Shown here: in pieces, positions 22,881 through 56,471 of the stretch
Numbering within the stretch: position 1 is the first letter of the stretch
How the letters are laid out: every line of letters starts with the position of its first letter
Origin: Escherichia coli
Lineage (GTDB): Bacteria; Pseudomonadota; Gammaproteobacteria; Enterobacterales; Enterobacteriaceae
DNA length: 64,000 bases
Strand: one strand, 5' to 3'
Assembly: GCF_003790525.1 (NCBI RefSeq)
Contig: NZ_CP033633.1
Program-made: the position numbers and the translations under genes
Notes under the pieces: generated by a model
What the model was told of the DNA's origin: nothing
The model's database searches: none
The model's input: only the letters and a program-made list of their open reading frames with translations

Positions 22881-23074
22881 CCAACGCCATTCATGGCCAT
22901 ATCAATGATTTTCTGGTGCGTACCGGGTTGAGAAGCGGTGTAAGTGAACTGCAGTTGCCATGTTTTACGGCAGTGAGAGCAGAGATAGCGCTGATGTCCG
23001 GCGGTGCTTTTGCCGTTACGCACCACCCCGTCAGTAGCTGAACAGGAGGGACAGCTGATAGAAACAGAAGCCAC
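22799..23074 (-). CDS. insA: IS1 InsA
   Basis: Near-identical to 20165-20440. Confidence 0.9.
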
Positions 23075-23304
23075 TGGAGCACCTCAAAAACACCATCATA
23101 CACTAAATCAGTAAGTTGGCAGCATCACCCAGGGGGCCAGTCTAGCAGATTATGGTGCGCAGTTATACAACAGCAGTAATGAGGAGTCTACTATTTCTCT
23201 TGTTATGCCAGATGCAATTGAATGGAACGGAAAGAATACGCCAAGACGGCAATACATGATAAAATATATTGCCGTATTTAAATATTAAAATTTATTTTTG
23301 TAGA

Positions 23305-23712
23305 TTATCTGAATTTTCGGTGACCTTCAAGTTTTATATCGTTCATTTTATCCAGAGACTCACGTAATGATTCTATATCCCCGTCCTCAACTTTCTTTTT
23401 TGCAATATTGATTTCATGTTGTAGTTTTTTTAACTCTTCCTTATAACTATCTACAGAAACTTTATCATTAACATCTATCTTTTCAGGAATAATATTCATA
23501 GAAGAATCTACAGCTTTATCCATCATTTCAAGAGCATTTAATAGTGATGATTTATCATTGGAAGATTGTAGAATACTCATACTTTTGGCAAGAGACTGCA
23601 TGTTTTTATCCAGGCCAGAAGCCAAAGATACGTTGCTGAGAGATAAAAAAATAGCTAGTACAGCACCTGAGAAAAATACCTTTTGTTTTTTCATTAATAT
23701 ATTCCTGTTCAA
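23305..23712 (-). CDS. small secreted four-helix protein, cytochrome b562-like (tentative)
   Basis: Signal peptide; ~110-aa mature helical protein ending ...EGHRKFR (cf. cytochrome b562 C-terminus); AT-rich. Confidence 0.45.
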   Translation of the reverse strand: MNRNILMKKQKVFFSGAVLAIFLSLSNVSLASGLDKNMQSLAKSMSILQSSNDKSSLLNALEMMDKAVDSSMNIIPEKIDVNDKVSVDSYKEELKKLQHEINIAKKKVEDGDIESLRESLDKMNDIKLEGHRKFR

Positions 23713-24078
23713 AGTTGATTATAGTTATGTCAATTTAAGTTTATTATTATGATTTTTTATTTTTGTACTATGAATCTCCTGTATGCTTATATGTGCAGAA
23801 AATCTCATTTTATCAAGAAGAATATCAAATTTTCTCCGATACTTCTACATACTCCATCATTCATGCTCCTTTTATCCGTGCACCGTAAAACCCCGTCCTT
23901 CAGCGGGGATATAAGGCGCTGTTTTCCACCTAACCAGGTGTCTGCTGCTATTCAATGTATTGGCGGATGACGGATGCCGCCCGTTGAAGCAGGAACCCAC
24001 GTCCTTAGGGCGTGGAGGATGTCAAATACCCGCCCTCATTGAGAGAGAAGCTACGAGATTTTCGCTAAGGGACACAGG

Positions 24079-25560
24079 TCATACGGGAGATGGCGGTTCC
24101 CAGCGTTTATCCTGCTCCGGCGGAGGCAGTGATGCGTCATCGTTGCTGTTCGCCGCGATATAATCGCGGTAGTAGCGTTCACTTCCTTCCCGGTGATGAT
24201 CCACATCCGGTCGTGTAATCCTGTAGTCTTCGTGACCGGTACGGCCTGTCACATTATGCCAGGCAACCATTTCAGCAAAGACCTGGTTAAATTGTTTGTC
24301 GTTTCCTTCTGGTTCAAAGCCCATTCTGGGATCACGCTCAAACAATACAGGTGCAATCAAATCCAGTTTATCTGCCAGCGCATTGCGGTCATGGTGATTA
24401 CGGAAAACAACCCTGTCACCATAATCCGTACAGACAAACTCTCCCGTCCGACGGTCACGGAAACGAACACTCCCGTTCTTCTGCAAACGGGCCTCGAGAT
24501 CACCGGTATTACCGTATACCGGCGTTCCGCCCGGTTCACAAAGCACGACACAGCGGTCTGTTGTTGTTGTGCGTGACTTGTCTTTACGGCGATCGCGATA
24601 ATCCCAGCCTCTCAACTGCGATACAGCAGCCCTGTCTCCCTGAGCAGCCTGAATTTCGACCCACTGACGGTAAGAGGGTGGATACCACTTCCCGTCAGCA
24701 ATAAGTTTCTGTCGCTCATCCCTGATGTCTTCTTTCAGCCTGATCAACGCCTGCATTCGCTGAACTTCTGCAATGTGATAATGCAGCTTACGTAATGCCG
24801 GATCATCGTACTGCGCACGAATGTGTGACTTCCGCAGACGGCATGCCTGATGAATTTCCCGACAACGTTCCCCATTACGCAGATCTGGTTTACGCCATTG
24901 TTCACGCCATGCCAGATAGCGGGCACGCAGGTCAGCACGGGCCTCAGCTCTGGCTTCACGTCGCTGCCGGCGCAGCATTGGGTCACGTTTACTGCTGACC
25001 CCGTACCTGTCACTGACAGCCAGCTCCGGGTTATAGCGACTTTCAGGTTGCACCCTGTCAAACAAATCTGCTGGGGCACTCACAAAAGGTCCGGCCTGTG
25101 GCTCTGCACGCCCCAGAGTCAGATCAGGATGAATGCTGCTGGCCTTCACCGGCGTTTGCTCATGATTAAAGGCATCAACGACAACAAGCCCGTGATGTTG
25201 TTTCTGTAGCATCAGTCCCTGTTGTGCAAACAGCTCATGACAACGCTGCCAGGTAAACTCACCCTGTGTGATCATTTCTTCAATCTGAGGGCTACAATGG
25301 CTGATGCTGTATCCCCACAGACTTTCTTTATCAGAAAACAGTTCGCGTTTGATATCCCCCTGCGGCCCCGTGCCTGTACGCATACGGTGCCATTCTTTAT
25401 CGGTCGCAGGACAGCTCTCCATACGACGACCACGGAAGCGTTCTGTTGGCGTAACCTGGCGGAAAATATCTGTTGGTACAGGCTGCCAGCCACCATCGAG
25501 TTGATTCACATTGTCGAGCGTCAGCAGTGACCATACGGTGTCAGCACGAACGGGAGTCTG
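24079..25560 (-). pseudogene. relaxase fragment: paralogue of the C-terminal ~490 aa of the NikB-like relaxase at 53701-56403; nuclease domain missing
   Basis: Long collinear similarity (QTPVRADxxWxLLTLxN...WHRMRTGxGPQGxIKRExFSDKESLWGY...) to the 900-aa relaxase but lacking the HxH relaxase motifs. Confidence 0.65.
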
Positions 25561-25599
25561 GTTATGATATTTTTCGGATCCCGGTGAAAAAAGAGAGAA

Positions 25600-25720
25600 A
25601 CATGCAGATACCATGCATATCCATATGTTTGGCATCTGCATATGACAGGCATACGCATATCTCACACATCTGCATATCTATAACATATACATATGTATCA
25701 CATCTGCATATACTAAACAT
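25600..25720. repeat. array of ~6 imperfect direct repeats with 17-bp periodicity (ATCTGCATAT-N7)
   Basis: GCATAT cores at 25615, 25638, 25655, 25672, (25689 variant), 25706. Confidence 0.5.
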
Positions 25721-25750
25721 ATATAAAAGCCGTCTTGCCAGGAGGAAGAC

Positions 25751-25981
25751 ATGAGAACCGTATCTATTTTCAAAAATGGCAATAACCGCGCGATCCGTCT
25801 GCCCCGCGATCTGGATTTTGAGGGGGTGAGTGAGCTGGAGATTGTACGGGAAGGGGACAGAATCATTCTGCGTCCCCTCCGCCCGAGCTGGAGCTCATTC
25901 CTGGAGCTAGAAAAGGCCGATCCGGGCTTTATGACGGAACGCGAGGACGTTGTCTGCGACGAAGGACGATTTAACCTGTGA
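25751..25981 (+). CDS. vapB: VapB/VagC-type antitoxin (AbrB/SpoVT fold)
   Basis: 76-aa ORF MRTVSIFKNGNNRAIRLPRDL...; overlaps downstream PIN toxin. Confidence 0.8.
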   Translation: MRTVSIFKNGNNRAIRLPRDLDFEGVSELEIVREGDRIILRPLRPSWSSFLELEKADPGFMTEREDVVCDEGRFNL

Positions 25982-26394
25982 ACAAGATCTATATGCTCGA
26001 CACGAACATCTGCTCGTTCATCATGCGCGAGCAGCCTGAAGCAGTGCTTAAGAATCTGGAGCAGGCGGTGCTGCGCGGTCACCGTATAGTGGTCTCGGCC
26101 ATCACCTACTCCGAGATGCGCTTCGGCGCCACCGGTCCAAAGGCATCGCCACGCCACGTGCAGCTGGTTGACGCGTTCTGCGCCCGTCTCGATGCCATCC
26201 TGCCCTGGGATCGCGCTGCGGTGGATGCAACCACGGAGGTTAAGGTGGCGCTGCGCCTCGCCGGCACGCCGATCGGTCCGAACGACACGGCGATCGCCGG
26301 GCACGCCATCGCCACCGGGGCAATACTGGTGACGAATAATGTGAGAGAGTTTGAGCGGGTGCCTGGACTGGTACTGGAAGACTGGGCAGGATAA
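25978..26394 (+). CDS. vapC: VapC/VagD PIN-domain toxin
   Basis: 138-aa ORF MLDTNICSF... with acidic PIN residues; hairpin terminator at 26402-26425. Confidence 0.85.
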   Translation: MNKIYMLDTNICSFIMREQPEAVLKNLEQAVLRGHRIVVSAITYSEMRFGATGPKASPRHVQLVDAFCARLDAILPWDRAAVDATTEVKVALRLAGTPIGPNDTAIAGHAIATGAILVTNNVREFERVPGLVLEDWAG

Positions 26395-26955
26395 AGGAGT
26401 AAGGCCGCCCCCGACGGCCTTACCACTATTTTGCGATGTCAGTCGTATTCATTTTCAGCGTTAAAAAAGGGCTCTATACGAATACGTGTATCAGCGTGAG
26501 TAAGTTTCGGCGGCCTGATAAATCCACTATTTCCCAGCTGGACAGCCAGTTGCCACATGGCATCACTACGGGGAATGCTACGATAATTCCTCTCTGTGAG
26601 GAAAGCGGCATAATCCTGATGCCCGAACGTCATGAGCACCTGTCTGATGAACTTGTGTGACCCACCGTCATTTTTAAGACATTGCATCAGCAGTGCCTGC
26701 TTCTGCCGGTCATCGGTTATTTTGGTGGAGAACCTTATCAGGGCTTGCTGGCTGAGAAGTGGTGCCTCAGAGAGCAGGGCTTCATCTTTTTCCCAGAGCC
26801 AGTTCAGGATACTGATACAGACTTCATCTGCAATCTTATCGCCATTCAGAATTAAACGAGTAATCCCCAGGTCAAACTGGTCATCAGCAAATAAAACAAG
26901 CTGAACCGCCCCGGGAATCCTGGAGACTAAACTCCCTGATAAAGAGGTAAACAGA

Positions 26956-27282
26956 ATGACTAAAAATACTCGTTTTTCCCCCGAAGTCCGTCAGAGGGCG
27001 ATTCGTATGGTTCTGGAAAGTCAGGGCGAATATGACTCACAGTGGGCGGCAATTTGTTCCATTGCCCCAAAGATTGGCTGTACACCGGAGACTCTGCGTG
27101 TCTGGGTACGCCAGCATGAGCGGGATACCGGAGGCGGTGATGGCGGGCTCACCACCGCTGAACGTCAGCGTCTGAAAGAGCTGGAACGTGAAAATCGTGA
27201 ACTGCGCCGCAGTAACGATATCCTTCGCCAGGCTTCCGCTTATTTTGCGAAGGCGGAGTTCGACCGCCTCTGGAAAAAGTGA
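26956..27282 (+). CDS. IS629 transposase OrfA
   Basis: Identical protein to 7383-7709. Confidence 0.85.
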
Positions 27283-28169
27283 TGCCACTGCTGGATAAGC
27301 TGCGTAAGCTGTACGGGGTCGGACCGGTATGCAGTGAACTACATATTGCCCCGTCAACGTATTACCACTGTCAGCAACAGCGACATCATCCTTATAAACG
27401 CAGTGCCCGTGCGCAGCGCGATGACTGGCTGAAGAAAGAGATACTGCGCGTATACGATGGGAATCATCAGGTATATGGTGTGCGTAAAGTCTGGCGTCAG
27501 TTGTTACGGGAAGGAATCAGGGTAGCCAGATGTACAGTGGCGCGCCTCATGGCGGTTATGGGACTTGCCGGTGTTCTCCGGGGTAAAAAGGTCCGCACTA
27601 CCGTCAGCCGGAAAGCCGTTGCCGCAGGCGACCGCGTAAACCGTCAGTTTGTGGCAGAACGTCCTGACCAGTTGTGGGTGGCTGATTTTACTTACGTCAG
27701 CACATGGCAGGGGGTCGTCTATGTGGCGTTCATCATTGATGTGTTTGCCGGATACATCGTGGGGTGGCGGGTCTCATCGTCTATGGAAACGACATTCGTG
27801 CTGGATGCTCTGGAGCAGGCGTTATGGGCCCGTCGACCGTCCGGCACAGTCCATCACAGTGATAAAGGTTCTCAGTATGTATCGCTGGCCTACACACAGC
27901 GGCTTAAGGAAGCCGGATTACTGGCATCAACAGGAAGTACTGGTGACTCGTATGACAACGCGATGGCGGAGAGCATCAATGGCCTTTACAAAGCGGAGGT
28001 AATACACCGTAAGAGCTGGAAAAACCGGACAGAAGTGGAGCTGGCCACACTCACGTGGGTGGACTGGTATAACAATCGACGATTGCTGGAAAGGCTGGGC
28101 CATATCCCACCGGCAGAAGCAGAAAAAGCTTATTATGCTTCCATCGGAAACGATGATCTGGCAGCCTGA
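27279..28169 (+). CDS. IS629 transposase OrfB
   Basis: Identical protein to 6496-7386. Confidence 0.85.
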
Positions 28170-28559
28170 GTTCACAGATAAAACACTCTCCAGGAAACCC
28201 GGGGCGGTTCAAACACCCTTTCTTCATCCATCCTGCGCGCTCCATCTGATAATGTTCTGACAGGTAAAAATCAAATTCTGTATGATTTTTGTGTTATCGA
28301 TTTATGATAATATCAGATATTTTTTCATTACTTATGATTAAAATCATATCTAATATGAATTTATGTGTATTGCTTAATTATCATATCACCTGCCCGTTTC
28401 CCGCCGCGCAGATCCGGTTTCCGGCTGAAGTGGATCCAGACCTGATTTGTTGCTGAGTATCGGTAAAAGTGCGGCTTATAAGCTATTCTGAAACATGGCA
28501 AGTGAATCTGGGCTGTATAATTCCGGCAAGTGTCATCTGTATTTAAAGGACGTGTGAGT

Positions 28560-36780: not shown

Positions 36781-38052
36781 TCAGAATGAAGCAATGGGGA
36801 TCTCAGTCCATTGTGTTGTATACGAAGGCGAGAGCATTTCCCGTTTCATTTGCCATTCAGGGGCGGTTCCTCGCCCCGCAAACCACACTTTCCCTTTTCC
36901 CGACTGGTTCAGTTCATCGAGTGTTTTCATTAACTTTTCACTGTTTTTACGGGGCTGGATTTCATCAAATAATCCCGGCTGCGCTATACCCGATGGTGTG
37001 AAATCAGCCAGCATGACTCCTGCCTTCATATAGCGGTACCCTTCACGCCAGACATGGTTTAAGGCTCTGCATGCGGCGGCAATAATGTCCCGGCTGTCCT
37101 GTGTGGGCAATGGAAGCTTTTCCACAGCGGCATTGCTGTAACAGGGTTCTTTTACTGCAAAGGGGGATGTCCGTACAAATGTCGTCACCTGCCGGCAATA
37201 CTGACGCTCCCCACGTAGTTTCTCTGCGGCCCGCTCTGCATACTGAACAACAGCCTGGTGCATGGCATCTTTGTCTGTGATTCGTTCACCAAAACTGCGA
37301 CTACAGACAATCTGCTGTTTTGCCGGTGGTGCTTCTTCCAGGGATATGCAGGACTCGCCGTTGAGTTCGCGTACCGTACGCTCAAGAATGACGCTGAAGT
37401 TTTTCCGGATGAATGCCGTGTTAGCCTGCGCCAGCTGCAGTGCTGTGTTAATACCCAGCGCATTCAGCTTTTCCGTCAGTCTGCGTCCTACTCCCCAGAC
37501 CTCACCAACTGGCTGCAGTCCCAGTAGCTTCAAGATCCGATTACGGTTTTCTGCCGTCAGCGCGACCACACCGGAAAACTGTGGCCATTGCTTTGTTGCC
37601 CACTGTGCACTTTTAGCCAGCGTTTTTGTAGGCGCAATGCCCACCCCCATGGTGAGTCCTGTCCAGCTCTTTACCTGTTCCCTGAGCTGATGACCAAAAA
37701 ACTCCGGAGAGATGCAATGATTTATCCCCCGCAAATCAATAAACATTTCATCAATTGAGTAGGGCTCAACTGCGGGAGAAAGCGACTCCAGAACAGCCAT
37801 GACCCGTTGGCTCATGCTGTGGTACAGCGCATAATTGCTGGAAAATACATGTATTTTCTTCTCCAGGCGCATCTGTCTCACCTGAAACCAGGGCTGCCCC
37901 ATTCTGATGCCAAGGGCTTTTGCCTCCGGGCTGCGCGCGATCACACAGCCATCGTTATTGCTGAGTACGATGACCGGTTCGTTGCGAAGGTCCGGGCGGA
38001 AAACTTTTTCACATGAGGCGTAGAAACTGTTGATATCAGCCAGTGCAAACAT
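36781..38052 (-). CDS. Y-family DNA polymerase V catalytic subunit (UmuC/MucB/ImpB-like)
   Basis: 423 aa; MFALADINSFYASCEKVFRPDLRNEPVIVLSNNDGCVIARS... N-terminus. Confidence 0.85.
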   Translation of the reverse strand: MFALADINSFYASCEKVFRPDLRNEPVIVLSNNDGCVIARSPEAKALGIRMGQPWFQVRQMRLEKKIHVFSSNYALYHSMSQRVMAVLESLSPAVEPYSIDEMFIDLRGINHCISPEFFGHQLREQVKSWTGLTMGVGIAPTKTLAKSAQWATKQWPQFSGVVALTAENRNRILKLLGLQPVGEVWGVGRRLTEKLNALGINTALQLAQANTAFIRKNFSVILERTVRELNGESCISLEEAPPAKQQIVCSRSFGERITDKDAMHQAVVQYAERAAEKLRGERQYCRQVTTFVRTSPFAVKEPCYSNAAVEKLPLPTQDSRDIIAAACRALNHVWREGYRYMKAGVMLADFTPSGIAQPGLFDEIQPRKNSEKLMKTLDELNQSGKGKVWFAGRGTAPEWQMKREMLSPSYTTQWTEIPIASF

Positions 38053-38489
38053 CAGCGTAACTCCCGCGTCCTGTGTATCACGTGAGTGACAACACCAAAA
38101 ATACAGATGTTTTCCGGATACAGTGTGCGGAACTCCGGGCTGTCTGAAACCGGCTCCAGTGCCGGGCGTGGGCGCAACAGCAGTCGTTTGACGGTGAACT
38201 CACCGTCGATCTCAGCGATAACGATGTCCCCGTGTTGTGGTTTTTCGGCCCTGTCCACTACCAGCAGATCACCATTCTGCACGCCAGCCTGGTTCATCGA
38301 TTCACCGCTGGCGCGCAGAAAGAAGGTGGCTGCAGGTCTGCTGATGCAATAGCTGTTCAGATCCAGTTCCTGCTCAGCATAATCAGTGGCAGGCGAAGGA
38401 AAACCGGCCTGGCAACGATCGGCAAACAACGGTCGCACGTAACTGTCATCGCCTGAAGGGTCAGCCGGACGGTGATAAACGGTACTCAT
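38052..38489 (-). CDS. UmuD/MucA/ImpA-like self-cleaving accessory subunit
   Basis: 145 aa; ...ASGESMNQAGVQNGDLLVVDRA...GDIVIAEIDGEFTVKRL (Ser/Lys peptidase fold). Confidence 0.8.
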   Translation of the reverse strand: MSTVYHRPADPSGDDSYVRPLFADRCQAGFPSPATDYAEQELDLNSYCISRPAATFFLRASGESMNQAGVQNGDLLVVDRAEKPQHGDIVIAEIDGEFTVKRLLLRPRPALEPVSDSPEFRTLYPENICIFGVVTHVIHRTRELR

Positions 38490-38734
38490 GCTGCAGGCAG
38501 CCAGCTGTCGTCCTGCCAGATTTCTTCCAGCAGAGACAGGATACGTTCTTTATCCTTGTCGTTGCGGGCTCCTGTGACAGATACAGACGGGGCGCTGCCC
38601 TGGTCTATACGCAGCCAGATTTCCGGGTAGTGTGGTTTCAGACGTTGTTCGATTTCATTCTGTAGCGCCTGAAGTGTGCCTGATTTGAGGTTTTTTGTGC
38701 TCTGGCGGTCGAAAAGAATTTCAATGCGGATCAT
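38486..38734 (-). CDS. DinI-family protein (ImpC-like) heading the umuDC-like operon
   Basis: 82-aa ORF from internal ATG (MIRIEILFDRQ...ILSLLEEIWQDDSWLPAA), DinI-like acidic C-terminus. Confidence 0.6.
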   Translation of the reverse strand: MIRIEILFDRQSTKNLKSGTLQALQNEIEQRLKPHYPEIWLRIDQGSAPSVSVTGARNDKDKERILSLLEEIWQDDSWLPAA

Positions 38735-39127
38735 GTTCTCATCTCCCTTTTCTCTTGCTGTATGTATATACAGTATTCTAATAACTGAATCCACACACAG
38801 TCAAATGTCATTATTGTGACTAAAAAACGCTCAATTCTCTGAGGGTGTGGCTGTATGCCTGCTGTGGAGTGCTGTGTCCAGCTTATCCACAGCATTTTGT
38901 GCACGGTTCTGTGGACAAAATACCTGGTTACCCAGGCCGTGCCGGCACGTTAACCGGGCTGCATCCGATGCAAGTATGTCGCTGTCGCCGGCCTCCTCAC
39001 CCGGTCACGTTTCGTCGTTCCTCCTCCACGCGCTGCGGCTTCGGGGCCGCACCTGCATTCGTATGCGGTCGCCCGGTAACAGGTGCGGCACGGCCTGATG
39101 GAGGCCGCATGTGAGAGGAGAATTCCC

Positions 39128-40054
39128 ATGCCAAACTGGTGCTCGAATCGTATGTATTTTTCTGGTGAACCGGCACAGATCGCTGAGATTAAACGACTGG
39201 CCAGTGGTGCAGTCACACCGCTTTATCGCCGCGCCACAAATGAAGGTATTCAGCTGTTTCTGGCCGGAAGTGCCGGACTTCTGCAGACCACTGAAGATGT
39301 GCGGTTTGAACCATGCCCCGGACTGACGGCTGCCGGACGTGGTGTTGTATCTCCGGAGAATATAGCGTTCACCCGCTGGCTGACACACCTGCAGAACGGT
39401 GTACTGCTGGATGAGCAAAACTGCCTGATGCTGCATGAACTCTGGCTGCAGAGCGGTACTGGACAGCGTCGCTGGGAAGGATTACCGGACGATGTCAGGG
39501 ATACCATCACCGCACTTTTCACCGCAAAAAGAGGTGACTGGTGTGGCTTCTGGAGTAACGAGGATGTATCGGTGTGGTGGAACCGTCTGTGTGACAATGT
39601 ACTGCCGGAAAAAACCATGCCGTTTGACCTGCTGACGGTTCTGCCGACCCGCCTTGATGTTGAAGTGAATGGCTTCAACGGTGGTGTTCTGAACGGTGTT
39701 CCTTCTGCATATCACTGGTATACAGAACGGTATGGTGTGAAGTGGCCTTGTGGGTATGACCTGAATATCAGCAGTCAGGGGGAAAACTTCATTCAGGTGG
39801 ATTTCGACACGCCGTGGTGTCAGCCGGAAAGCGACGTTATTGCAGCATTAAGCCGCCGTTTCAGCTGCACGCTGGAGCACTGGTATGCCGAACAGGGCTG
39901 TGATTTCTGTGGCTGGCAGTTGTATGAGCGCGGAGAGCTTGTTGATGTGCTGTGGGGGGAACTGGAATGGTCTTCCCCGACAGATGACGATGAGCTGCCG
40001 GAAGTCACCGGACCTGCGTGGATAGTCGACAATGTGGCGCATTATGGCGGATGA
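39128..40054 (+). CDS. hypothetical Cys/Trp-rich leading-region protein
   Basis: 308 aa from ATG 39128 (MPNWCSNRMYFSG...); SD ggagga upstream; first ORF of the co-oriented leading-region block. Confidence 0.55.
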   Translation: MPNWCSNRMYFSGEPAQIAEIKRLASGAVTPLYRRATNEGIQLFLAGSAGLLQTTEDVRFEPCPGLTAAGRGVVSPENIAFTRWLTHLQNGVLLDEQNCLMLHELWLQSGTGQRRWEGLPDDVRDTITALFTAKRGDWCGFWSNEDVSVWWNRLCDNVLPEKTMPFDLLTVLPTRLDVEVNGFNGGVLNGVPSAYHWYTERYGVKWPCGYDLNISSQGENFIQVDFDTPWCQPESDVIAALSRRFSCTLEHWYAEQGCDFCGWQLYERGELVDVLWGELEWSSPTDDDELPEVTGPAWIVDNVAHYGG

Positions 40055-40102
40055 AGTATGACGGAGACGGGCGGGAAACCGCCCGTTTCTTTTCCGACAA
40101 AG

Positions 40103-40447
40103 GATGTCGCCGGCGGCTCCGCTTTACCCGGCCATGCGGGGCATGGCCTTGTGGGTTTTCAACTCTGTAGCCTCAGCGTCGTGTGCGGGCTGTGCCGTGC
40201 CTCCATCGTAGCCGGGCTTCTGCGGGCGGGTTGCAAGGTAAGGTGAACCGCTGCGGTCACCCGGTCCCTCCTTCCCGTCTGCCGTGATTTTCCGGTCGTT
40301 CACCCGCTCAGATTTCGCGGTCTCACCCTCCAACTCCCGTCAGCCGTGTGCGTCAGGCTGCGGCTTCCCTTGCGCCCTTGCAACCCTGCAGGCCCGGCAA
40401 AGATGGAGGCACGGCACCGCCCGGTGTCGCGGAATATGTGAACAACG
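40103..40447 (+). repeat. structured non-coding repeat, family A copy 1 (ssi/Frpo-like candidate)
   Basis: ~345 bp GC-rich, near-identical to 47056-47402; directly upstream of the klcA-like gene. Confidence 0.6.
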
Positions 40448-40459
40448 GAGGAAAACATC

Positions 40460-40885
40460 ATGCAATATGCGAAACCTGTCACTCTGAATGTTGAAGAGTG
40501 CGACCGTCTCTCCTTTCTGCCTTACCTGTTTGGCAACGATTTTCTGTATGCCGAGGCGTATGTGTACGCGCTGGCGCAAAAAATGATGCCGGAATATCAG
40601 GGAGGCTTCTGGCACTTCATCCGCCTGCCGGACGGTGGCGGTTACATGATGCCGGATGGCGACCGTTTCCACATGGTGAACGGTGCAAACTGGTTTGACC
40701 GTACCGTGAGTGCTGATGCCTGCGGCATCATTCTGACTTCCCTTGTGATTAACCGCCAGTTGTGGCTGTACCACGACAGCGGGGATGCGGGACTGACACA
40801 CCTTTACCGGATGCGCGATGCGCAGTTGTGGAGCCACATCGAATTTCACCCCGAATGCAATGCGATTTACGCGGCACTGGACTGA
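40460..40885 (+). CDS. antirestriction protein, KlcA/ArdB-like (tentative)
   Basis: 141 aa; ...[22 protein letters not shown]...[15 protein letters not shown]...; assignment from remembered family pattern. Confidence 0.5.
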
Positions 40886-40931
40886 TTAACGGACGGGGCG
40901 GCGATGCCGCCCCTGTAAAGGAGACGAGAAC

Positions 40932-41351
40932 ATGTACTGTACTGTTAAAGAAATTATCCGCGAAGTGCTGGATACAGACGTGCCGGACAGTGAATGCGTT
41001 TTTGCTGTGGTGCTGACCCGTGGGGATGTACGTCACATAGCCCAGGACTGGAGTCTGACAGACGATGAGCTGGAAACCGTCATGCAGCGGCTGGACGATG
41101 CCTTTGAGCATGGTGCTGATGTCAGCATTGTTCACGACGTTGTTCGTGAACTGATGGAGGAAAAGCGCGTAAACCGTCTTGTAACAGTCCCTGCGGTGCT
41201 GCTGGAAAAAGTGATGGTGATGGCTGGTAGTGAAATTTATCGCCTCCATGCTGTAGGGAGCGAGAACGGGGGCGACGGTGACGCATTTGTCAGGGAAGAA
41301 CGTGAGATTATGCGGTTGATGCGTCAGGCGCTGGACGGGGAGAACGGGTAA
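40932..41351 (+). CDS. hypothetical acidic leading-region protein
   Basis: 139-aa ORF co-oriented with neighbours. Confidence 0.5.
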   Translation: MYCTVKEIIREVLDTDVPDSECVFAVVLTRGDVRHIAQDWSLTDDELETVMQRLDDAFEHGADVSIVHDVVRELMEEKRVNRLVTVPAVLLEKVMVMAGSEIYRLHAVGSENGGDGDAFVREEREIMRLMRQALDGENG

Positions 41352-41542
41352 TGAATATCAGCACAGAAACCCGCGAAATTCTGCGCAATTACAAAGCCGT
41401 GATTAATGCACGACGTCGTGAGATGGGGCAGAAACCGCTCACCACCGCGCAGATTGTTGATGAAATCTGCGATTTTGTGGCAAATCAGCAGGCTGTTTTC
41501 CTCGGCGGTCACTACATCCTTCAGGGCAGCAGAAACAGGTGA
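41351..41542 (+). CDS. hypothetical small protein
   Basis: 63-aa ORF, start overlaps previous stop. Confidence 0.35.
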   Translation: MNISTETREILRNYKAVINARRREMGQKPLTTAQIVDEICDFVANQQAVFLGGHYILQGSRNR

Positions 41543-41744
41543 TACAGGGCAGGCGGTGGAGGCCGCCTGTCAGCCCGCGCGAAAACCCCTGGCAGGCTGA
41601 CGCCTGCCGGAAACGCGGGGTGCAGCGCCTGCGGCGCTGCCGGCCCGGCTTTCCGGTCAGAAGGTAGTGTATGGCTGTATGCCAGGAACAGGTGTGATAT
41701 TCCGTGACGCTGTCACCGTTTCTGGCTGTTTTTTGTTGCGCCCA

Positions 41745-42300
41745 CTTCGGCTCCCGGCTGCCTGGCGGCATCCGGTCGTCAGGCCCGACTCCGACAGGCA
41801 GCTGCTGGCGCACCCGCCAGTCTCCGCCGAACCCGCTGGCGCGGTTTCGGGCTGTCGCTACGGTCCGATGCGTGAAAACCCGGGCTTGCAGCGACCGTTC
41901 CGGTCGCGCCGCCTCTGTCGCGCCGTGACCTGCGCTCCCTGCACACCTGACGGTGTGTGAGGAAACTGCGCCTGATGGCGCAGCAGTCTTCCCTCCTGCC
42001 GCCACCTCTGCGGCCTGTTTCCCGCTGTGGACTTTCCGGGGGGCAGACGTAACCCCCTCCCGTTCCATCTGTCCAGGGTGAGATGCACCGGCCACAAAAT
42101 TTTTAGCCATGAACCCGGCTAAAAATTTTGCGTCCGCCCCCGGACAGCTGTCCCGTGAGGCGGTAAACGGGCCCCCATCGGAAAGGTCCACTGCGGGGAG
42201 AAACCCCTGTGAAGTGGACGGCAGGAGGAGCTTTCGCTCCTCTGAAGGGGCACATGAACGTCCCGTCGCCGGTATCCGGTTTATCTCACATCTTTCAGTC
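41745..42300 (+). repeat. structured non-coding repeat, family B copy 1 (ssi/Frpo-like candidate) upstream of ssb
   Basis: ~555 bp GC-rich, many internal palindromes; paralogous to 48098-48640 and 51470-51850. Confidence 0.6.
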
Positions 42301-42311
42301 AGGAGGTTCTT

Positions 42312-42839
42312 ATGAGTGCACGTGGTATCAACAAGGTCATCCTCGTCGGGCGTCTGGGCAATGATCCGGAAGTCCGTTACATCCCCAACGGGGGCGCAGT
42401 GGCAAACCTGCAGGTGGCCACGTCAGAAAGCTGGCGCGACAAACAGACGGGGGAGATGCGGGAGCAGACGGAATGGCACCGCGTGGTGCTGTTCGGCAAG
42501 CTCGCGGAAGTGGCAGGTGAATATCTGCGCAAGGGCGCGCAGGTCTACATCGAGGGGCAACTCCGTACCCGTAGCTGGGAAGATAACGGTATCACCCGTT
42601 ACGTCACTGAAATTCTTGTTAAGACCACGGGCACCATGCAGATGCTGGGGAGTGCACCACAGCAGAACGCTCAGGCGCAACCGAAGCCTCAGCAGAATGG
42701 GCAGCCACAGAGTGCTGACGCGACGAAAAAAGGTGGCGCGAAAACGAAAGGCCGTGGACGTAAGGCCGCGCAGCCCGAGTCTCAGCCGCAACCGCCGGAG
42801 GGGGAGGATTACGGGTTTTCAGACGATATCCCGTTCTGA
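42312..42839 (+). CDS. ssb: plasmid single-stranded DNA-binding protein
   Basis: 175 aa; OB-fold N-terminus, Gln/Pro-rich linker, acidic tail ...DDIPF. Confidence 0.9.
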
Positions 42840-42857
42840 CTGGCCTGACTGTGATAA

Positions 42858-43130
<273 letters not shown>

Positions 43131-43193
43131 GAGAGGTGCCGGACGGGAACGCGTCCGGCAGACATACAACCATCCCGGTCAAAGGAGAAATAT

Positions 43194-45151
43194 ATGTCAG
43201 TTACAGAGTCTAAGACAAAAACGGAGCGTAAATCCAGCCGTAAACCTGCAAAAACGCAGGAAACTGCACTGTCTGCCCTGCTGGCGCAGACGGAGGAAGT
43301 GAGCGTGCCGCTGGATTCACTGATTAAATCACCGCTGAATGTGCGCACGGTGCCGTATTCTGCGGAGTCCGTCAGTGAACTGGCTGATTCCATTAAGGGA
43401 GTCGGCCTGCTGCAGAATCTGGTTGTTCATGCCCTGCCAGGTGACCGTTACGGTGTCGCCGCAGGTGGTCGCCGACTGGCAGCACTCAACATGCTGGCAG
43501 AGCGTGACATCATTCAGGCTGACTGGCCTGTCCGCGTGAAAATTATTCCGCAGGAGCTGGCGACGGCTGCATCGATGACCGAGAACGGTCATCGTCGGGA
43601 TATGCACCCTGCCGAACAGATTGCCGGATTCCGCGCAATGGCGCAGGAAGGCAAAACACCTGCGCAAATCGGTGATTTGCTGGGCTATTCACCCCGCCAT
43701 GTCCAGCGAATGCTGAAACTGGCTGACCTTGCGCCTGTCATCCTCGATGCGCTGGCAGAAGACCGCATCACCACCGAACACTGTCAGGCGCTGGCGCTGG
43801 AGAACGACACCGCGCGTCAGGTGCAGGTGTTTGAAGCCGCCTGCCAGTCAGGATGGGGTGGAAAACCGGATGTGCGGGTTATCCGCAACCTGATTACGGA
43901 AAGTGAAGTGGCGGTGAAGGACAACACTAAATTTCGCTTTGTGGGGGCTGATGCTTTCTCGCCTGACGAACTGCGCACCGATTTGTTCAGCGATGACGGG
44001 GACGGTTATGTCGACCGCGTGGCGCTCGATGCCGCCCTGCTGGAAAAACTCCAGGTTGTTGCAGAGTCCCTTCGGGAAGCAGAAGGCTGGGAATGGTGCG
44101 CCGGGCGCATGGAGCCAGTCGGTGAGTGCCGTGAGGATGCCGGAACATACCGCTGTCTGCCGGAGCCGGAAGCGGTGCTGACGGAGGCGGAAGAAGAACG
44201 CCTGAACGAACTGATGACGCGTTACGACGCGCTGGAAAACCAGTGTGAGGAATCCGACCTGCTGGAAGCAGAAATGAAGCTGATGCGCTGCATGGCGAAG
44301 GTCAGAGCGTGGACGCCGGAGATACGTGCCGGAAGCGGTGTGGTGGTGTCCTGGCGTTATGGCAACGTATGTGTCCAGCGTGGTGTGCAGTTGCGCAGTG
44401 AAGATGACGCGACTGACGACGCTGACCGCACGGAACAGGTGCAGGAGAAAGCGTCAGTGGAGGAAATCAGTCTGCCACTGCTGACGAAAATGTCTTCCGA
44501 ACGCACGCTGGCAGTCCAGGCGGCACTGATGCAGCAACCGGACAAATCCCTGACACTGCTGGCATGGACGCTCTGCCTGAATGTGTTTGGCAGCGGAGCG
44601 TACAGTAAACCAGCACAAATCAGCCTGGAATGTAAACATTATTCGCTGACCAGCGATGCGCCGTCAGGGAAGGAAGGTGCCGCATTCATGGCGCTGATGG
44701 CAGAAAAAGCCCGTCTTGCGGCCCTGTACCGGAGGGATGGTCACGGGACATGACGACATTCCTTTCACTCAGTCAGGAGGTGCTGTTATCCCTGCTCAGT
44801 TTCTGCACCGCGTGCAGCATCCACGGCGTTCAGACCCGCGAGTGTGGTCACACGTCACGCAGCCCGCTGGACACGCTGGAGAGCGCCATCGGTTTTCACA
44901 TGCGCGACTGGTGGCAGCCGACAAAAGCAAACTTCTTCGGACACCTGAAAAAGCCGCAGATTATCGCAGCCCTGAATGAGGCAGGACTGTCCGGTGCCGC
45001 ACGGGACGCGGAGAAGATGAAGAAAGGCGATGCGGCTGAACATGCAGAGTTCCATATGAAAGACAACCGCTGGGTGCCTGGCTGGATGTGTGCACCACGT
45101 CCACAGACGGATACCACTGAACGCACTGATAACCTGGCTGATGCCGCCTGA
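43194..45151 (+). pseudogene. ParB-like nuclease-domain protein (leading-region ParB/YubM-like) split by a frameshift near 44750
   Basis: ORFs 43194-44753 (519 aa, ParB/Srx-like motif ...VAAGGRRLAAL...) and 44750-45151 (133 aa) together span the ~650 aa expected. Confidence 0.65.
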
Positions 45152-45202
45152 TGAACAACCACACCGCCCCGCCGGAGACGGGGCGGCAGCAAGGGAGATA
45201 CC

Positions 45203-45640
45203 GTGATGAAAACTGAACTGACCCTGAATGTCCTGCAGACCATGAACGCACAGGAATATGAAGATATCCGTGCTGCGGGAAGCGATATGCGCCGTAATCT
45301 CACTCACGAGGTGATGCGTAAAGTGGACGCACCGGCTAACTGGATGATGAATGGCGAGTATGGCAGTGAGTTCGGGGGCTTTTTCCCCGTCCAGGTTCGT
45401 TTCACGCCAGCCCACGAACGTTTCCACCTGGCATTATGTTCGCCGGGAGACGTCTCTCAACTCTGGATGCTGGTTCTGGTGAATGGTGGTGGACAGCCTT
45501 TCGCCGTCGTTCAGGTGCAACATATCTTCACGCCTGTCGCGATCAGTCACACGCTGGCGCTCGCCGCGACACTTGATGCGCAGGGATACAGTGTTAACGA
45601 CATCATTCATATTTTGATGGCAGAAGGAGGTCAGGCATGA
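45203..45640 (+). CDS. psiB: PsiB, plasmid SOS inhibition protein B
   Basis: [27 protein letters not shown]...[10 protein letters not shown], near-identical to F PsiB. Confidence 0.9.
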
Positions 45641-46356
45641 GCGCACGTTCACGGGCACTGATCCCCCTCAGCGCAGAACAACAGGCCGCCATGCAGGCTG
45701 TGGCTGTCACCGAACAACGTCGTCGTCAGGGACGCACACTTTCAGCATGGCCTTATGCCAGCGCTTTCTTTCGCTGCCTGAATGGCAGTCGCCGGATTTC
45801 GCTGACCGATCTCCGCTTTTTTGCCCCTGCGCTGACGAAGGAGGAATTTCATGGCAACCGTCTCCTGTGGCTGGCTGCCGTGGATAAACTGATTGAAAGT
45901 TTTGGTGAAGTCTGTGTTCTTCCCCTGCCATCCGATGCGGGGCATCGTCTGTTCCCGTCTGTTCCTTTTCGTGAAGGTGAGCGTCGTCGTCAGAAAACCA
46001 CGCTGACAGAGCAGAAATACAGCCGCCAGCGGGAACGTGAGGCAGAACGACGGGAACTGGAATACCAGACATGTTTTGCTCAGGCGCAGATTGACCTTGC
46101 GTTTCATACTCCCGCCACGGTCGGAAGCTGGTTGTCCCGCTGGTCTGGTGCTGTTGAGGAGCATGATCTGGAAACGATTTTCTGGGGGTGGTGCGGGCGT
46201 TTTCCGTCACTGTCATCATTTGACCGGTTTTTCTGGCAGGAGGGACCACTCTGGCGGCTGATTTTTGAAGCCGGTGAGGCCGGTCGTGGTGCACCGGTAC
46301 AGGTACGTGCACTTGAGCAGTGGATGATCCCGAACAAGCTGGAGAACGTAATATGA
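45637..46356 (+). CDS. psiA: PsiA, plasmid SOS inhibition protein A
   Basis: 239-aa ORF overlapping psiB stop; [22 protein letters not shown]... Confidence 0.85.
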
Positions 46357-46949
46357 TGAAATCAGACGAAAAATATCAGGTTCCCGTGTGGATGCGACCT
46401 CTGTTGCCGTTGCTCTGCAACACCGGGGGGAACGATCCGGAAGAACTGCTGAATGATACAGCAACCACTGTCAGTGCGAATGTTGTCCGTTATGTACTGA
46501 TAGTTGCTGTGCGGTCGCAGGTTGATCTGCTGCAGATTCTGTACAGGAAAGGGCTGTTGCGCACAGAGATACCAGGTGGCTTTTCACCGGAAGAAGCGCA
46601 GGCACTCCTGGATAATCTGGTGCGCAGCCATATCAGCAGGGCGCTGTCGGGTGAGCGAATGGCAGCCCGTGACAGAAATGCCGATCTGGCCTGGATTCGA
46701 CAGCAACTGGTCGATGCCGCCTGGTTTGTCCGTGCCACACTGGAGGCGCATGGGATGGGCGTCGGAAATGAGAGTCCCCCTGCTCAGCCGGAGACAATGC
46801 CGGACATACAGACACGGGAACTGGTGATGTTGATCAAGCGACTGGCATCATCGCTGAAAGCGGTGAAACCGGACAGTTGTGTGGTGCGTGAAGCGCAGGA
46901 CTGGCTGCGCGACAGAAAACTTGTGAGCATCACGGATGTTCTTCGGTGA
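46353..46949 (+). CDS. hypothetical leading-region protein
   Basis: 198-aa ORF; ATG overlaps psiA stop (ATGA). Confidence 0.5.
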   Translation: MMKSDEKYQVPVWMRPLLPLLCNTGGNDPEELLNDTATTVSANVVRYVLIVAVRSQVDLLQILYRKGLLRTEIPGGFSPEEAQALLDNLVRSHISRALSGERMAARDRNADLAWIRQQLVDAAWFVRATLEAHGMGVGNESPPAQPETMPDIQTRELVMLIKRLASSLKAVKPDSCVVREAQDWLRDRKLVSITDVLR

Positions 46950-47055
46950 ACCAGTGGAGGTATGCTTGAGGGGCAGGGACATGCCGGTCATGATCGTTTC
47001 GTTCCAGGGGTGGTCTGGAGATCATGCGGTGTGCTCCCTGCTCTCGCCGGAATAA

Positions 47056-47402
47056 GGACGTCGCCGGCGGCTCCGCTTTTACCCGGCCATGCGGGGCATG
47101 GCCTTGTGGGTTTTCAGGTATGAAGCCATCGTGTCGTGTGCGGGCTGTGCCGTGCCTCCATCGTAGCCGGGCTTCTGCGGGCGGGATGCAAAGGTACGCT
47201 TCGCCGCTGCGGTCACCCGGTCCCTCCTTCCCGTCTGCCGTGATTTTCCGGTCGTTCACCCGCTCAGATTTCGCGGTCTCACCCTCCAACTCCCGTCAGC
47301 CGTGCGCGTCGGGCTGCGGCTTTCCTTGCGCCCTTGCATCCCTGCAGGCCCGGCAAGGATGGAGGCACGGCACCGCCCGGTGCCGCAGAACATGTGACTA
47401 TG
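47056..47402 (+). repeat. structured non-coding repeat, family A copy 2 (ssi/Frpo-like candidate) upstream of ardA
   Basis: Near-identical to 40103-40447. Confidence 0.6.
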
Positions 47403-47414
47403 GAGGATTCGGGA

Positions 47415-47915
47415 ATGTCTGTTGTTGCACCTGCTGTATACGTTGGAACCTGGCACAAATACAACTGCGGAAGCATCGCCGGACGCTGGTTTGACCTGAC
47501 CACGTTTGATGATGAACGCGATTTTTTCGCCGCCTGCCGTGCCCTTCACCAGGATGAAACCGATCCGGAACTGATGTTTCAGGATTATGAGGGATTCCCG
47601 GGGAATATGGCCTCTGAATGTCATATCAACTGGGCCTGGGTTGAAGGCTTCCGCCGGGCGCGGGATGAAGGCTGCGAAGAGGCTTATCGTCTCTGGGTGG
47701 ATGATACCGGTGAGACGGATTTTGACACCTTCCGCGATGCCTGGTGGGGCGAGGCTGACAGTGAGGAGGCTTTTGCGGTTGAGTTCGCCAGTGATACCGG
47801 CCTGCTGGCTGGCGTGCCGGAGACGGTGGCGCTCTATTTTGACTATGAGGCGTATGCGCGGGATTTATTCCTGGACTCCTTCACCTTTATTGACGGTCAT
47901 GTGTTCCGTCGGTGA
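47415..47915 (+). CDS. ardA: ArdA antirestriction protein (DNA mimic)
   Basis: 166 aa from ATG 47415: MSVVAPAVYVGTWHKYNCGSIAGRWFDLTTFDDERDFFAACRALHQDE...; highly acidic. Confidence 0.85.
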   Translation: MSVVAPAVYVGTWHKYNCGSIAGRWFDLTTFDDERDFFAACRALHQDETDPELMFQDYEGFPGNMASECHINWAWVEGFRRARDEGCEEAYRLWVDDTGETDFDTFRDAWWGEADSEEAFAVEFASDTGLLAGVPETVALYFDYEAYARDLFLDSFTFIDGHVFRR

Positions 47916-48097
47916 TTTACTCCCCCGCTCCGGCGGGGGTATGGCCTGCCGGGCCGCCGGAAAACCCTGGCAGGCTTACGCCTGCCTGAAATGCAGGAGG
48001 GCCGCGCCTGCGGCGCTGCCCTTCCTGCCCGTCATGGTGTGAGGCATTTTTCTGTTATGTCGTTTCTGTTGTTCTGATTTCCGGAGGCGGGGACACC

Positions 48098-48640
48098 CTT
48101 CGGCTCCCGGCTGCCTGGCGGCATCCGGTCGTCAGGCCCGACTCCGACAGGCAGCTGCTGGCGCACCCGCCAGTCTCCGCCGAACCCGCTGGCGCGGTTT
48201 CGGGCTGCCGCTACGGTCCGATGTCTGAAAAACCAGGCCTGCAGCGACCGTTCCGGTCGCGCCGCCCCTGTCGCGCCGGAAACGGCGCTCCCTGCACACC
48301 TGACGGTGTGTAAGGCCACTGCGCCTGATGGCGCAGTTGTCTGCCCTTCCGCCGCCACCCCTGCGGCCTGTTTCCCGCTGTGGACTTTCCGGGGGCTGAA
48401 GCGGCCACAACACGTTTCAGCCGTCCAGGGGAGAGATGTACCAGCCACAAAACTTTTTGCCGCAGGCGTCAAAAACTTTTGCGTCTGCCCCCGGACAACT
48501 GCCCCGTGCCGTGGCAGTCGCTGCCCCATCGGAAAGGTCCACTGCGGGGAGAAACCCCGAAGAAGTGGACGGCAGAAGGGGCTTTCGCCCCTCCGGGGAA
48601 TAACCGGTCGGCCCGGCGACCTGATTCAGCAGAAGGAGAC
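48098..48640 (+). repeat. structured non-coding repeat, family B copy 2
   Basis: Paralogue of 41745-42300. Confidence 0.6.
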
Positions 48641-48646
48641 GTTTTC

Positions 48647-49081
48647 ATGACAGTCAGCAGCACGATTTCCGTTTTTTGCCGAGACGGGGTGTTCCGTACC
48701 GTTTACTGCCACCTGCACGGTGAGCCGACCTGGAACGGTCGCATCCTGCATACCCACTATGCCACCGGTCAGCTGGCCGAAGCCCTGGTTGAACACGGAG
48801 ATATCCGTTGCCTCGGTCCCCGTTGCGACAAACCCGCCGGGCATACGCTTCAGAACCCGGTGGACGGTGTGACGGCTTATTACGGACGTGACAGTGGTTT
48901 CCGGATGGACAGTGAAGCGCGTGAGTACCGCTCTTTCAGGGAGGCTATTGCCACTGAAAGCACAGAAGAGGTGCGCTTCCATTATGTGTTCATCGACGGC
49001 TACTGGAAGGTGATGTACCGCACGCCGGAAGGCTGGAAGATGAAAGCGCTCGCGCTGGCACTGCGTCGCTGTCCGGAATGA
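48647..49081 (+). CDS. hypothetical leading-region protein (Cys/His-containing)
   Basis: 144 aa from ATG 48647 (MTVSSTISVFCRDGVFRTVYCHLHGEPTWNGR...); SD aggaga 9 nt upstream. Confidence 0.55.
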   Translation: MTVSSTISVFCRDGVFRTVYCHLHGEPTWNGRILHTHYATGQLAEALVEHGDIRCLGPRCDKPAGHTLQNPVDGVTAYYGRDSGFRMDSEAREYRSFREAIATESTEEVRFHYVFIDGYWKVMYRTPEGWKMKALALALRRCPE

Positions 49082-49173
49082 AAAAAAGCAGGGCGATAAA
49101 CCCTGCCTTTCTCCGCCGGCGCTTCCCCGTACGGAAGTCCGGCATCTCATTCACTAACTATGGAGATTATGCT

Positions 49174-49440
49174 ATGAGGCCATCAATTATCTTCGCAACC
49201 GCCGAGTATGTAAAGCGTCTGCGTGAAGAGTGCCGGCGGGAGAACAAACCCCTGCACCGCCATACCCGCTTCAGACGCCAGGAACTGGCACCGGATGAGA
49301 TTAACCCGGACGTCCTGGCGATGGGCGGTCATATCGCCAGACGCTGCAGTGAGCGGAAGCGGGTGCGTATCCCCGCCATGAAAGTCAGCGAATGGGGCCA
49401 CCTGCTCCGCGCGCTTGAAATTGAGCGGGTCTGCCACTGA
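49174..49440 (+). CDS. hypothetical basic small protein
   Basis: 88 aa from ATG 49174 (MRPSIIFATAEYVKRLREE...); SD ggaga upstream. Confidence 0.45.
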   Translation: MRPSIIFATAEYVKRLREECRRENKPLHRHTRFRRQELAPDEINPDVLAMGGHIARRCSERKRVRIPAMKVSEWGHLLRALEIERVCH

Positions 49441-49504
49441 TTAACCCTTGCCGTCTGCCTGTGCAGGCGGCAGGATACGTTCAGACATCTCACCAGGAGG
49501 AACC

Positions 49505-50467
49505 GTGAGTAAGAAGAAAACCACCACGACGCCCACGCCGCATGATGCCGCGTTCCGGTCGTTCCTGGCGAACCCCGACGTCGCCAGAGATTTTCTGGAA
49601 CTGCATCTTCCGGCGGAGTACCGGCAGTTGTGCGACCTGTCCACGCTGAAGCTGGAACCCGCCACCTTTGTTGAGCCGGACCTGCATCAGTACGCCAGCG
49701 ATATCCTCTGGAGTGTGAAAACCACCGGGGGTGAAGACGGCTATATTTATACGCTCATCGAGCACCAGAGCACCGAAAATCTGTACATGCCTTTCCGCAT
49801 GTTACGTTACAGTGTGGCGGCGATGCAGAGACATCTGGAGCAGCACAAAACATTGCCACTGGTGATTCCGGTGCTGTTCTATCATGGTGAGCGCAGCCCG
49901 TACCCGTACAGCATGAACTGGCTGGACTGTTTTGAGGATCCGGCGCTTGCGGCTAAAATATACACAAAGCCGTTTCCGCTGGTTGATATCACTGTCGTTG
50001 ATGACAATGAAATCATGAACCATCGCCGGATGGCCGCACTGACGCTGCTGATGAAGCATATCCGCCATCGTGACATGATGGAGCTGCTGGACAAACTCCC
50101 GCAGGTCATGGTGGAAATTTCAGACGAGCAGGTGCGTGTTCTGATTCATTACATCGTTAACGCAGGGGACTCTGTATCACCGGAATTTATGCGGGCGCTG
50201 GCTGAGCGTCTGCCGCAGCATGAGGATAAACTGATGACTATTGCCGAACGTCTTGAGCAGCAAGGAATACAGAAAGGAATACAGCAGGGAATACAGCAGG
50301 GAATACAGCAGGGAATACAGCAGGGAATACAGCAGGGAATACAGAAAGGCCGCATGGAGGAGAAGCAGGATATTGCGCGTCAGCTTCAGAAAACGGGAAT
50401 GCCATCTGCACAAATCTGTCAGATCACCGGACTTTCCGAAGCTGAACTGAAGAACATCACTCACTGA
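49505..50467 (+). CDS. Rpn-family (YhgA-like, PD-(D/E)XK) recombination-promoting nuclease with repeat-containing C-terminal tail
   Basis: GTG start with SD caggagga; N-terminal HDAAFRSFL...DFLELHLP...IEHQS...FRMLRYS motifs; C-terminal GIQ[QK] x7 repeat then conserved tail. Confidence 0.75.
   Translation: MSKKKTTTTPTPHDAAFRSFLANPDVARDFLELHLPAEYRQLCDLSTLKLEPATFVEPDLHQYASDILWSVKTTGGEDGYIYTLIEHQSTENLYMPFRMLRYSVAAMQRHLEQHKTLPLVIPVLFYHGERSPYPYSMNWLDCFEDPALAAKIYTKPFPLVDITVVDDNEIMNHRRMAALTLLMKHIRHRDMMELLDKLPQVMVEISDEQVRVLIHYIVNAGDSVSPEFMRALAERLPQHEDKLMTIAERLEQQGIQKGIQQGIQQGIQQGIQQGIQQGIQKGRMEEKQDIARQLQKTGMPSAQICQITGLSEAELKNITH
50234..50467 (+). CDS. putative intragenic small ORF (RpnS-like) from an internal in-frame SD+ATG within the Rpn gene
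   Basis: gagga-N7-ATG at 50234; product MTIAERLEQQ(GIQx)n...TGLSEAELKNITH parallels the two stand-alone downstream cassettes. Confidence 0.4.
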   Translation: MTIAERLEQQGIQKGIQQGIQQGIQQGIQQGIQQGIQKGRMEEKQDIARQLQKTGMPSAQICQITGLSEAELKNITH

Positions 50468-53356: not shown

Positions 53357-53689
53357 ATGAGTGAGAAGAAAAACCGAAGTGGTAGTGAGAAACGGCAAAA
53401 GAATGTCCTCATTGCTGTTCGTTTTTCACCAGAAGAGGCTGATATTGTTAAAGAAAAGGCAGAAAAAAACGGACTGACAGTTTCAACTCTGATAAGAAAA
53501 ACTGTGCTGGGAAAACAGATAAATGCCCGCATTGACGAAGATTTTTTGAAAGAGCTGATGCGTCTTGGTCGCCTGCAGAAGCATCTGTTTGTGGAAGGAA
53601 AACGCACGGGAGATAAAGAGTATGCAGAGGTTCTCGTTGCTATTACAGAACTTGCTAATACTCTGCGAAGAGATTTAATGGGACGCTGA
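53357..53689 (+). CDS. nikA: relaxosome accessory protein (NikA/MbeC-like ribbon-helix-helix)
   Basis: 110 aa; MSEKKNRSGSEKRQKNVLIAVRFSPEEADIVKEKAEKNGLTVSTLIRK...; immediately precedes the relaxase. Confidence 0.65.
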   Translation: MSEKKNRSGSEKRQKNVLIAVRFSPEEADIVKEKAEKNGLTVSTLIRKTVLGKQINARIDEDFLKELMRLGRLQKHLFVEGKRTGDKEYAEVLVAITELANTLRRDLMGR

Positions 53690-56403: not shown

Positions 56404-56471
56404 AAATCATGTAGACAGGGTGATTAAATCACCGTAATGTGTCCTCGTTGTGTATACATTATGGGGGAGAT

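Follow-up and report, generated by a model that had tools for sequence, protein, structure and literature searches.

The window analysed here is a 64,000-nucleotide stretch of an Escherichia coli contig (NZ_CP033633.1), and it carries, besides an intact relaxase gene, a minus-strand open reading frame that resembles only the C-terminal part of such a gene. The question raised by this locus is what the shorter frame is and how it came to lie in this plasmid. A first-pass annotation of positions 24079–25560 had called it the remnant of a second MOBP-type relaxase gene, left by an earlier cointegration or recombination with a plasmid from its own mobility family. The most probable answer, to which a probability of about 0.9 is given, is that the fragment is a non-functional 3' piece of an IncI1-type nikB gene, cut off by a join at the sequence TATGAT to vapBC DNA and inherited within a mosaic.

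The open frame extends over 24079–25665 on the minus strand and encodes 528 amino acids from a GTG start. When the translation was compared by BLASTP with the resident 900-aa relaxase (53701–56403), 329 of 494 positions were identical (67%), with 4 gaps and an E-value of 0. Residues 407–898 of the relaxase correspond to residues 36–527 of the ORF, and the two are collinear up to the C-terminus. Position 25560, the boundary given in the first-pass annotation, was correct, as it corresponds to ORF residue 36, the first residue aligned to the resident relaxase. The pairwise alignment that had been proposed as a check thus found significant similarity between the two proteins, and the description of the ORF as collinear with the C-terminal ~490 aa of the relaxase held.

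The nikB-derived part of this frame is 1,490 bp long (24079–25568, minus strand) and is equivalent to NikB codons 405–899. It has the same C-terminal architecture as the NikB of IncI1 plasmids (R64/ColIb-P9 type; WP_001387486.1 of pESBL-EA11, NC_018659.1), including TraI_middle, which was the only Pfam domain found in the fragment (PF22863, residues 108–196, 39.6 bits against a cut-off of 27.6). Unlike IncI1 NikB, it lacks codons 1–404. The alignment begins at NikB residue 405, and Pfam detected in the fragment no Relaxase nuclease domain (PF03432), which holds the catalytic Tyr and the His motif, in agreement with the earlier statement that the N-terminal nuclease domain is missing. The NCBIfam model for TraI/MobA(P) relaxases (NF041893) matched the fragment at 169 bits over model positions 179–496 only, below the equivalog cut-off of 250 bits. 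The nikA gene and oriT that belong to the IncI1 operon are not found directly upstream of the fragment, where a divergent vapBC stands. From 25569 to 25665 the minus-strand frame continues without homology to nikB for ~33–35 codons, up to the GTG, by reading through the IncF-type DNA upstream of vapBC; this 5' extension is, to judge by its sequence, chance read-through unrelated to nikB. Truncated relative to its full-length homologues, and with a defined breakpoint to unrelated DNA at 25568/25569, the fragment is a remnant, or pseudogene.

The source of the fragment is a relaxase lineage other than the resident one. Nucleotide identity to nikB of pESBL-EA11 is 98.4% over 24086–25568, and residues 405–898 of the IncI1 protein are 99.0% identical to the fragment (489/494) without a gap. 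Nucleotide identity to the resident relaxase gene is 70.8%, with no exact match longer than 17 nt. In a sensitive PLSDB search with the fragment, the identities were bimodal: 1,511 records at 95–99%, which are IncI1 nikB genes (97.7–98.8% nt), and 928 records at 60–80%, which are relaxases of B/O/K/Z-type plasmids (~71% nt), with only 22 records in the range of 80–95%. A further 80 records, at 99% or more, carry the fossil itself. By its near-identity to IncI1 nikB, apart from the B/O/K/Z type, the fragment is a member of the IncI1-type nikB lineage by descent. The 97.7–98.8% identity to the 1,511 IncI1 records bears out the earlier claim that it is left over from a second MOBP relaxase gene. 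Its description as diverged was right in that the fragment has 67% amino acid identity to the resident protein, but this divergence is not decay, since the fragment belongs to another relaxase lineage.

Between the fragment and the IncI1 reference there are 25 codon differences, 19 of them synonymous and 6 non-synonymous. As these differences are mostly synonymous, the divergence from IncI1 would be allelic, and the gene was once functional. Copies of the fragment differ from one another by 2–3 positions over 1,490 bp, and the frame is open for 528 codons, so that signs of decay go no further than three substitutions. These three are specific to the fragment lineage (25355 and 25538 in the window, 24879 in AR_0085), and all are non-synonymous, which fits relaxed constraint, in what is a tiny sample. 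In near-identical plasmids, the equivalent of 24079–25566 has the RefSeq/PGAP label "IncI1-type relaxase NikB, incomplete, missing N-terminus". The fragment is therefore already known as a pseudogene in public RefSeq records, and it is a commonplace plasmid scar; no paper that discusses the nikB remnant was found in the literature.

At the 5' end, homology to IncI1 nikB stops at 25568. A three-way alignment placed the truncation junction at 25563–25568, a 6-bp microhomology (TATGAT) common to IncI1 nikB and the region upstream of vapBC in IncF plasmids. Because both parental sequences have TATGAT at the crossover, the join was illegitimate and microhomology-mediated, and is not an IS end. In place of the 5' part of nikB stands an IncF-type vapBC segment (25563–26901, plus strand), which matches the backbone of pAPEC-O2-211A-ColV at 99.55% identity over 1,340 bp; the order there is HEPN nuclease, vapB, vapC. 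In the window vapB lies at 25751–25981 and vapC at 25978–26394, both on the plus strand, and vapBC is annotated by PGAP in the equivalent stretch of plasmid pE15-3.

In three contexts, the vapBC cassette breaks off on its left side within the same 6 bp (25563–25568): next to the HEPN nuclease gene in IncF plasmids, next to the nikB remnant, and next to ~280 bp of unrelated DNA by ISEc8 (pCh101 and Br_112_kylling p1). The site may be prone to recombination, or it may mark where the cassette ends.

On its other side, the vapBC segment is bounded by an IS3-family element of 1,310 bp resembling IS629/IS1203 (26902–28211, plus strand), recognised by BLAST and by its terminal inverted repeats (TGAACCGCCCCGGG...). 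Rfam places an ALIL frameshift pseudoknot in this element at 27237–27353. There is no 3-bp target-site duplication at 26902–28211, the flanks being AGC and AAC, and the absence of a duplication suggests that the element took part in a rearrangement rather than entering by simple insertion.

At the 3' end, homology to IncI1 nikB reaches down to 24079 in the comparison with p025542_85 and to 24086 with pESBL-EA11. It stops inside the final two codons, so that the 3' limit of the fragment is the end of the gene, and its last residue and stop codon come from flanking DNA. A spacer of 52 bp (24027–24078), common to all other carriers of the fossil, lies between the stop codon and a single copy of a 134-bp direct repeat (23893–24026). 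Part of this repeat (23893–23975) resembles DNA of the IS200/IS605 family, with a 90–93% match to annotated IS200/IS605 tnpA. In plasmid pLH10-b-1-A (NZ_CP100531.1) there are two copies of the repeat, at 54450–54583 and 63136–63269, and they bracket 8,686 bp with a metabolic gene cluster (LysR, cytosine permease, arcC, fdrA, cysteine hydrolase). Relatives of the window plasmid, as well as IncF ColV plasmids, carry this cluster next to the nikB remnant. The copy in the window is a hybrid, with the variants of the left copy at 23903 and 23915 and that of the right copy at 23999, which places the crossover between 23916 and 23998. The single hybrid copy therefore indicates that the two repeats recombined and the 8,686-bp cluster between them was deleted, and that the remaining repeat is the scar of this 8.7-kb deletion.

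In IncI1 plasmids, trbC and nikB are convergent with only 36 bp between them. This site carries cargo elsewhere: a DUF2971 gene in p025542_85, and ~10 kb of IS and TA genes between trbC and the resident relaxase gene in pE15-3.

The fossil exists in a long and a short form. Among 5,426 complete E. coli genomes, 11 have the long form (1,490 bp of nikB together with vapBC). Their sources are chickens, chicken meat and black kites, and the countries on record include China, Switzerland, France, Japan and Laos. All eight of these 11 carriers that are typed, or near-identical to a typed plasmid, belong to the I-complex. Five were typed directly (four IncK2/Z and one IncI-gamma/K1), and to these are added pE15-3, which is IncK2/Z, and its two near-identical siblings. 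Window positions 23000–27000 are 100% identical to pE15-3 and the two siblings, which are 129.7-kb plasmids of chicken E. coli from Hebei. The pE15-3 group is typed IncK2/Z and MPF_I; the window is a close relative of pE15-3 and structurally different from it elsewhere.

The 3' flank with the end of the gene (at least 80% of 23880–24090) is more widespread. It was found in 121 genomes, mostly on IncF ColV/APEC plasmids of 125–290 kb, more than 100 of which carry the short form, 434 bp with the same 3' flank. PGAP annotates the short form as a 435-nt "relaxase NikB" pseudogene beside the same metabolic cluster. Locus APECO2_RS27025 of pAPEC-O2-211A-ColV and the "relaxase NikB" pseudogene of pCh101 are the same fossil, 3' flank included, and the LysR to cysteine hydrolase cluster beside it is common to the ColV plasmids and the relatives of the window plasmid. 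Window positions 23891–24512 are 99.7% identical in two IncF ColV plasmids. The difference is in length: the ColV pseudogene keeps 434 bp up to an IS629 terminus, against which it ends directly at window position 24512, whereas the window keeps 1,490 bp and the original junction of nikB with vapBC. In pAPEC-O2-211A-ColV, the IS629 end at the nikB remnant is the same end, in the same orientation, as the one abutting vapBC at 26902 in the window, and the short form fits an IS-mediated adjacent deletion of 24513–26901. Since a short copy cannot regrow IncI1 sequence, the short form is derived from a long form like that in the window. Among the 5,426 complete E. coli genomes, the long form was not found in any IncF plasmid, and no intact nikB linked to the 3' flank of the fossil was found, with none above the matches of 54% coverage.

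These observations are consistent with the following history. The donor would be an IncI1 plasmid that already had cargo at the trbC–nikB site. The join at TATGAT to the IncF-type region upstream of vapBC severed the fragment from its 5' 1.2 kb, nikA and oriT, and the IncI1/IncF hybrid would then have entered an IS-rich accessory mosaic (eitABCD, cytochrome b562, vapBC, ccdAB, IS1 and IS629) that appears to circulate among poultry-associated E. coli plasmids. The occurrence of the same fossil and 3' flank in more than 100 IncF ColV/APEC plasmids is the reason to think that the fossil was inherited with this mobile mosaic. The long form survives in I-complex plasmids (IncK2/Z and IncI-gamma/K1), and the form in the IncF ColV/APEC plasmids has been shortened to 434 bp. 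As for the order of events, the IncI1 by IncF join may have come first, followed by transfer to I-complex plasmids, or the assembly may have taken place within an I-complex plasmid. In either order, the fragment is a record of an old illegitimate recombination between IncI1 and IncF-type DNA.

The other explanation of some weight is the one in the first-pass annotation, taken literally: an IncI1 plasmid would have formed a cointegrate with this I-complex backbone, or recombined with it directly, and all of it but the fragment would later have been deleted. The long form is seen only in I-complex plasmids, in eight typed carriers, and the leading region, ~13 kb at 94–98% to IncI1, would allow a homologous cointegrate of co-resident IncI1 and IncK2/Z plasmids. 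However, neither flank of the fragment is resident I-complex backbone or IncI1 backbone: IncF-type vapBC DNA adjoins its 5' end, and accessory DNA its 3' end. The resident nikB lies 28 kb away in the opposite orientation, and the nearest backbone is 11 kb off. A tblastn search of the window and of the full pE15-3 sequence for other pieces of IncI1-type nikA, nikB 5' or trbC matched only the resident genes. No other IncI1-specific DNA is present, and so there is no trace by which cointegration with the window plasmid could be shown. That more than 100 IncF ColV plasmids have this fossil together with its flank also speaks against direct recombination with this backbone, which makes the direct route unlikely, if well ahead of the explanations that follow. 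Of the earlier claim, recombination with a plasmid of the same mobility family stands, with an IncI1 donor at 97.7–98.8% nucleotide identity; the nature of the two flanks argues against a cointegration with the resident backbone.

Far less probable is that the truncated ORF is expressed as a protein of the NikB C-terminal domain, for example one that titrates the IncI1 transfer machinery of incoming or co-resident plasmids. The 528-codon frame is still open, and 11 genomes from several countries have kept the fragment; recency, though, accounts for the low diversity of the copies. The IncF carriers retain only 145 codons, and the lineage-specific substitutions are non-synonymous in all three cases. 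Upstream of the ORF, a crude consensus promoter scan of the minus strand detected nothing like a sigma-70 site, and no sequence resembling a Shine-Dalgarno site is visible before the in-frame GTG and ATG codons. Nothing else relevant was found around the fragment in the promoter and terminator scan or in Rfam, save the frameshift pseudoknot of IS629. Without a nuclease domain, an oriT or nikA partner, or any promoter or ribosome-binding site that could be recognised, the fragment is predicted to be inert in transfer. A more specific proposal is just as improbable. In it, divergent transcription of the frame, starting at the vapBC control region, would give a C-terminal NikB protein that has no nuclease and acts on IncI1 conjugation as a decoy or fertility inhibitor; if this were true, the protein would shield its I-complex host plasmid against competing relatives.

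Descent from the resident relaxase gene itself, by internal duplication or as a degenerate paralogue that diverged in place, would account for the collinearity and the 67% amino acid identity, but it is ruled out by the 98–99% identity to IncI1 nikB against only 70.8% to the resident gene, with its longest exact match of 17 nt, and the mostly synonymous differences from IncI1 also oppose it.

The preferred reading, of an IncI1 nikB piece inherited in a mosaic, has modest consequences. The fragment itself matters little, being a routine plasmid pseudogene with a label already in RefSeq. Typing tools count the remnant as an extra MOBP relaxase, which may inflate predictions of mobility: PLSDB/MOB-suite gives "MOBP,MOBP,MOBP" for these plasmids, and this count probably includes the pseudogene. 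The nested truncations, which have their 3' flank in common and measure 1,490 bp in the I-complex and 434 bp in IncF ColV plasmids, are also a handy marker, by which the accessory and virulence mosaic of poultry E. coli can be seen to have been exchanged between IncF and I-complex backbones, IncI1-derived DNA included.

I-complex typing and the requirement of nikB for transfer are described in the literature (PMC6361801, PMC10286972), and nikB is essential for I-complex transfer (PMC10286972). The working relaxase of this plasmid is, by its domain content and gene context, the distinct I-complex gene at 53701–56403 (plus strand), a NikB-like relaxase of the IncK2/Z type. Its 900-aa product has both the Relaxase and TraI_middle domains in Pfam (PF03432 at residues 86–203) and scores 415.9 bits with the NCBIfam TraI_MobP_relax model, against the cut-off of 250. 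It is 70% identical in amino acids to IncI1 NikB over the full length. Directly upstream is nikA/mobA, a relaxosome accessory gene (53357–53689, plus strand; NCBIfam MobA, 111 bits against a cut-off of 80). The resident NikA (match at 53357–53680) is 65% identical in amino acids to IncI1 NikA and is the only NikA match in the window, the remnant having no counterpart. The resident relaxase (WP_072648818.1 in pE15-3) and the fragment are thus both of the MOBP/NikB family and collinear over the C-terminal 494 residues; unlike the fragment, the resident gene is of the other lineage, full length, and has nikA/mobA upstream.

The two NikB-type relaxase sequences (53701–56403 and 24079–25568) are internally repetitive around TraI_middle, with about three tandem units of ~140 aa. 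These are seen as secondary BLASTP alignments of 32–36% identity at residues ~260–335, 304–449 and 407–582.

Similarity to IncI1 varies along the I-complex backbone. The leading region at 36803–49531 (impCAB, ssb, parB, psiAB, ardA) is 94–98% identical to pESBL-EA11 over ~13 kb, and oriT-nikA-nikB only ~83%, with ~71% in the 3' half of nikB. The backbone itself is, on these identities, a mosaic with IncI1. In pE15-3 (NZ_CP119749.1, 43694–45903, outside the window), traJ is truncated and traW follows it directly, and the traK–traV block of the I-type T4SS appears to be deleted; the "conjugative" call of MOB-suite for this plasmid is therefore doubtful.

Several other features lie downstream of the resident relaxase. 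A PemK/MazF-type toxin-antitoxin pair (56439–57064) is located between the relaxase gene and another IS629-like copy, which contains a group II intron with a reverse transcriptase/maturase (~57322–60880; RT ORF at 58752–60275, Rfam Intron_gpII at 60279–60365). In pE15-3, the intron occupies a different IS copy. An Rfam match to STAXI RNA (70.4 bits) is present on the minus strand at 63591–63748, by IS100 (istA/istB).
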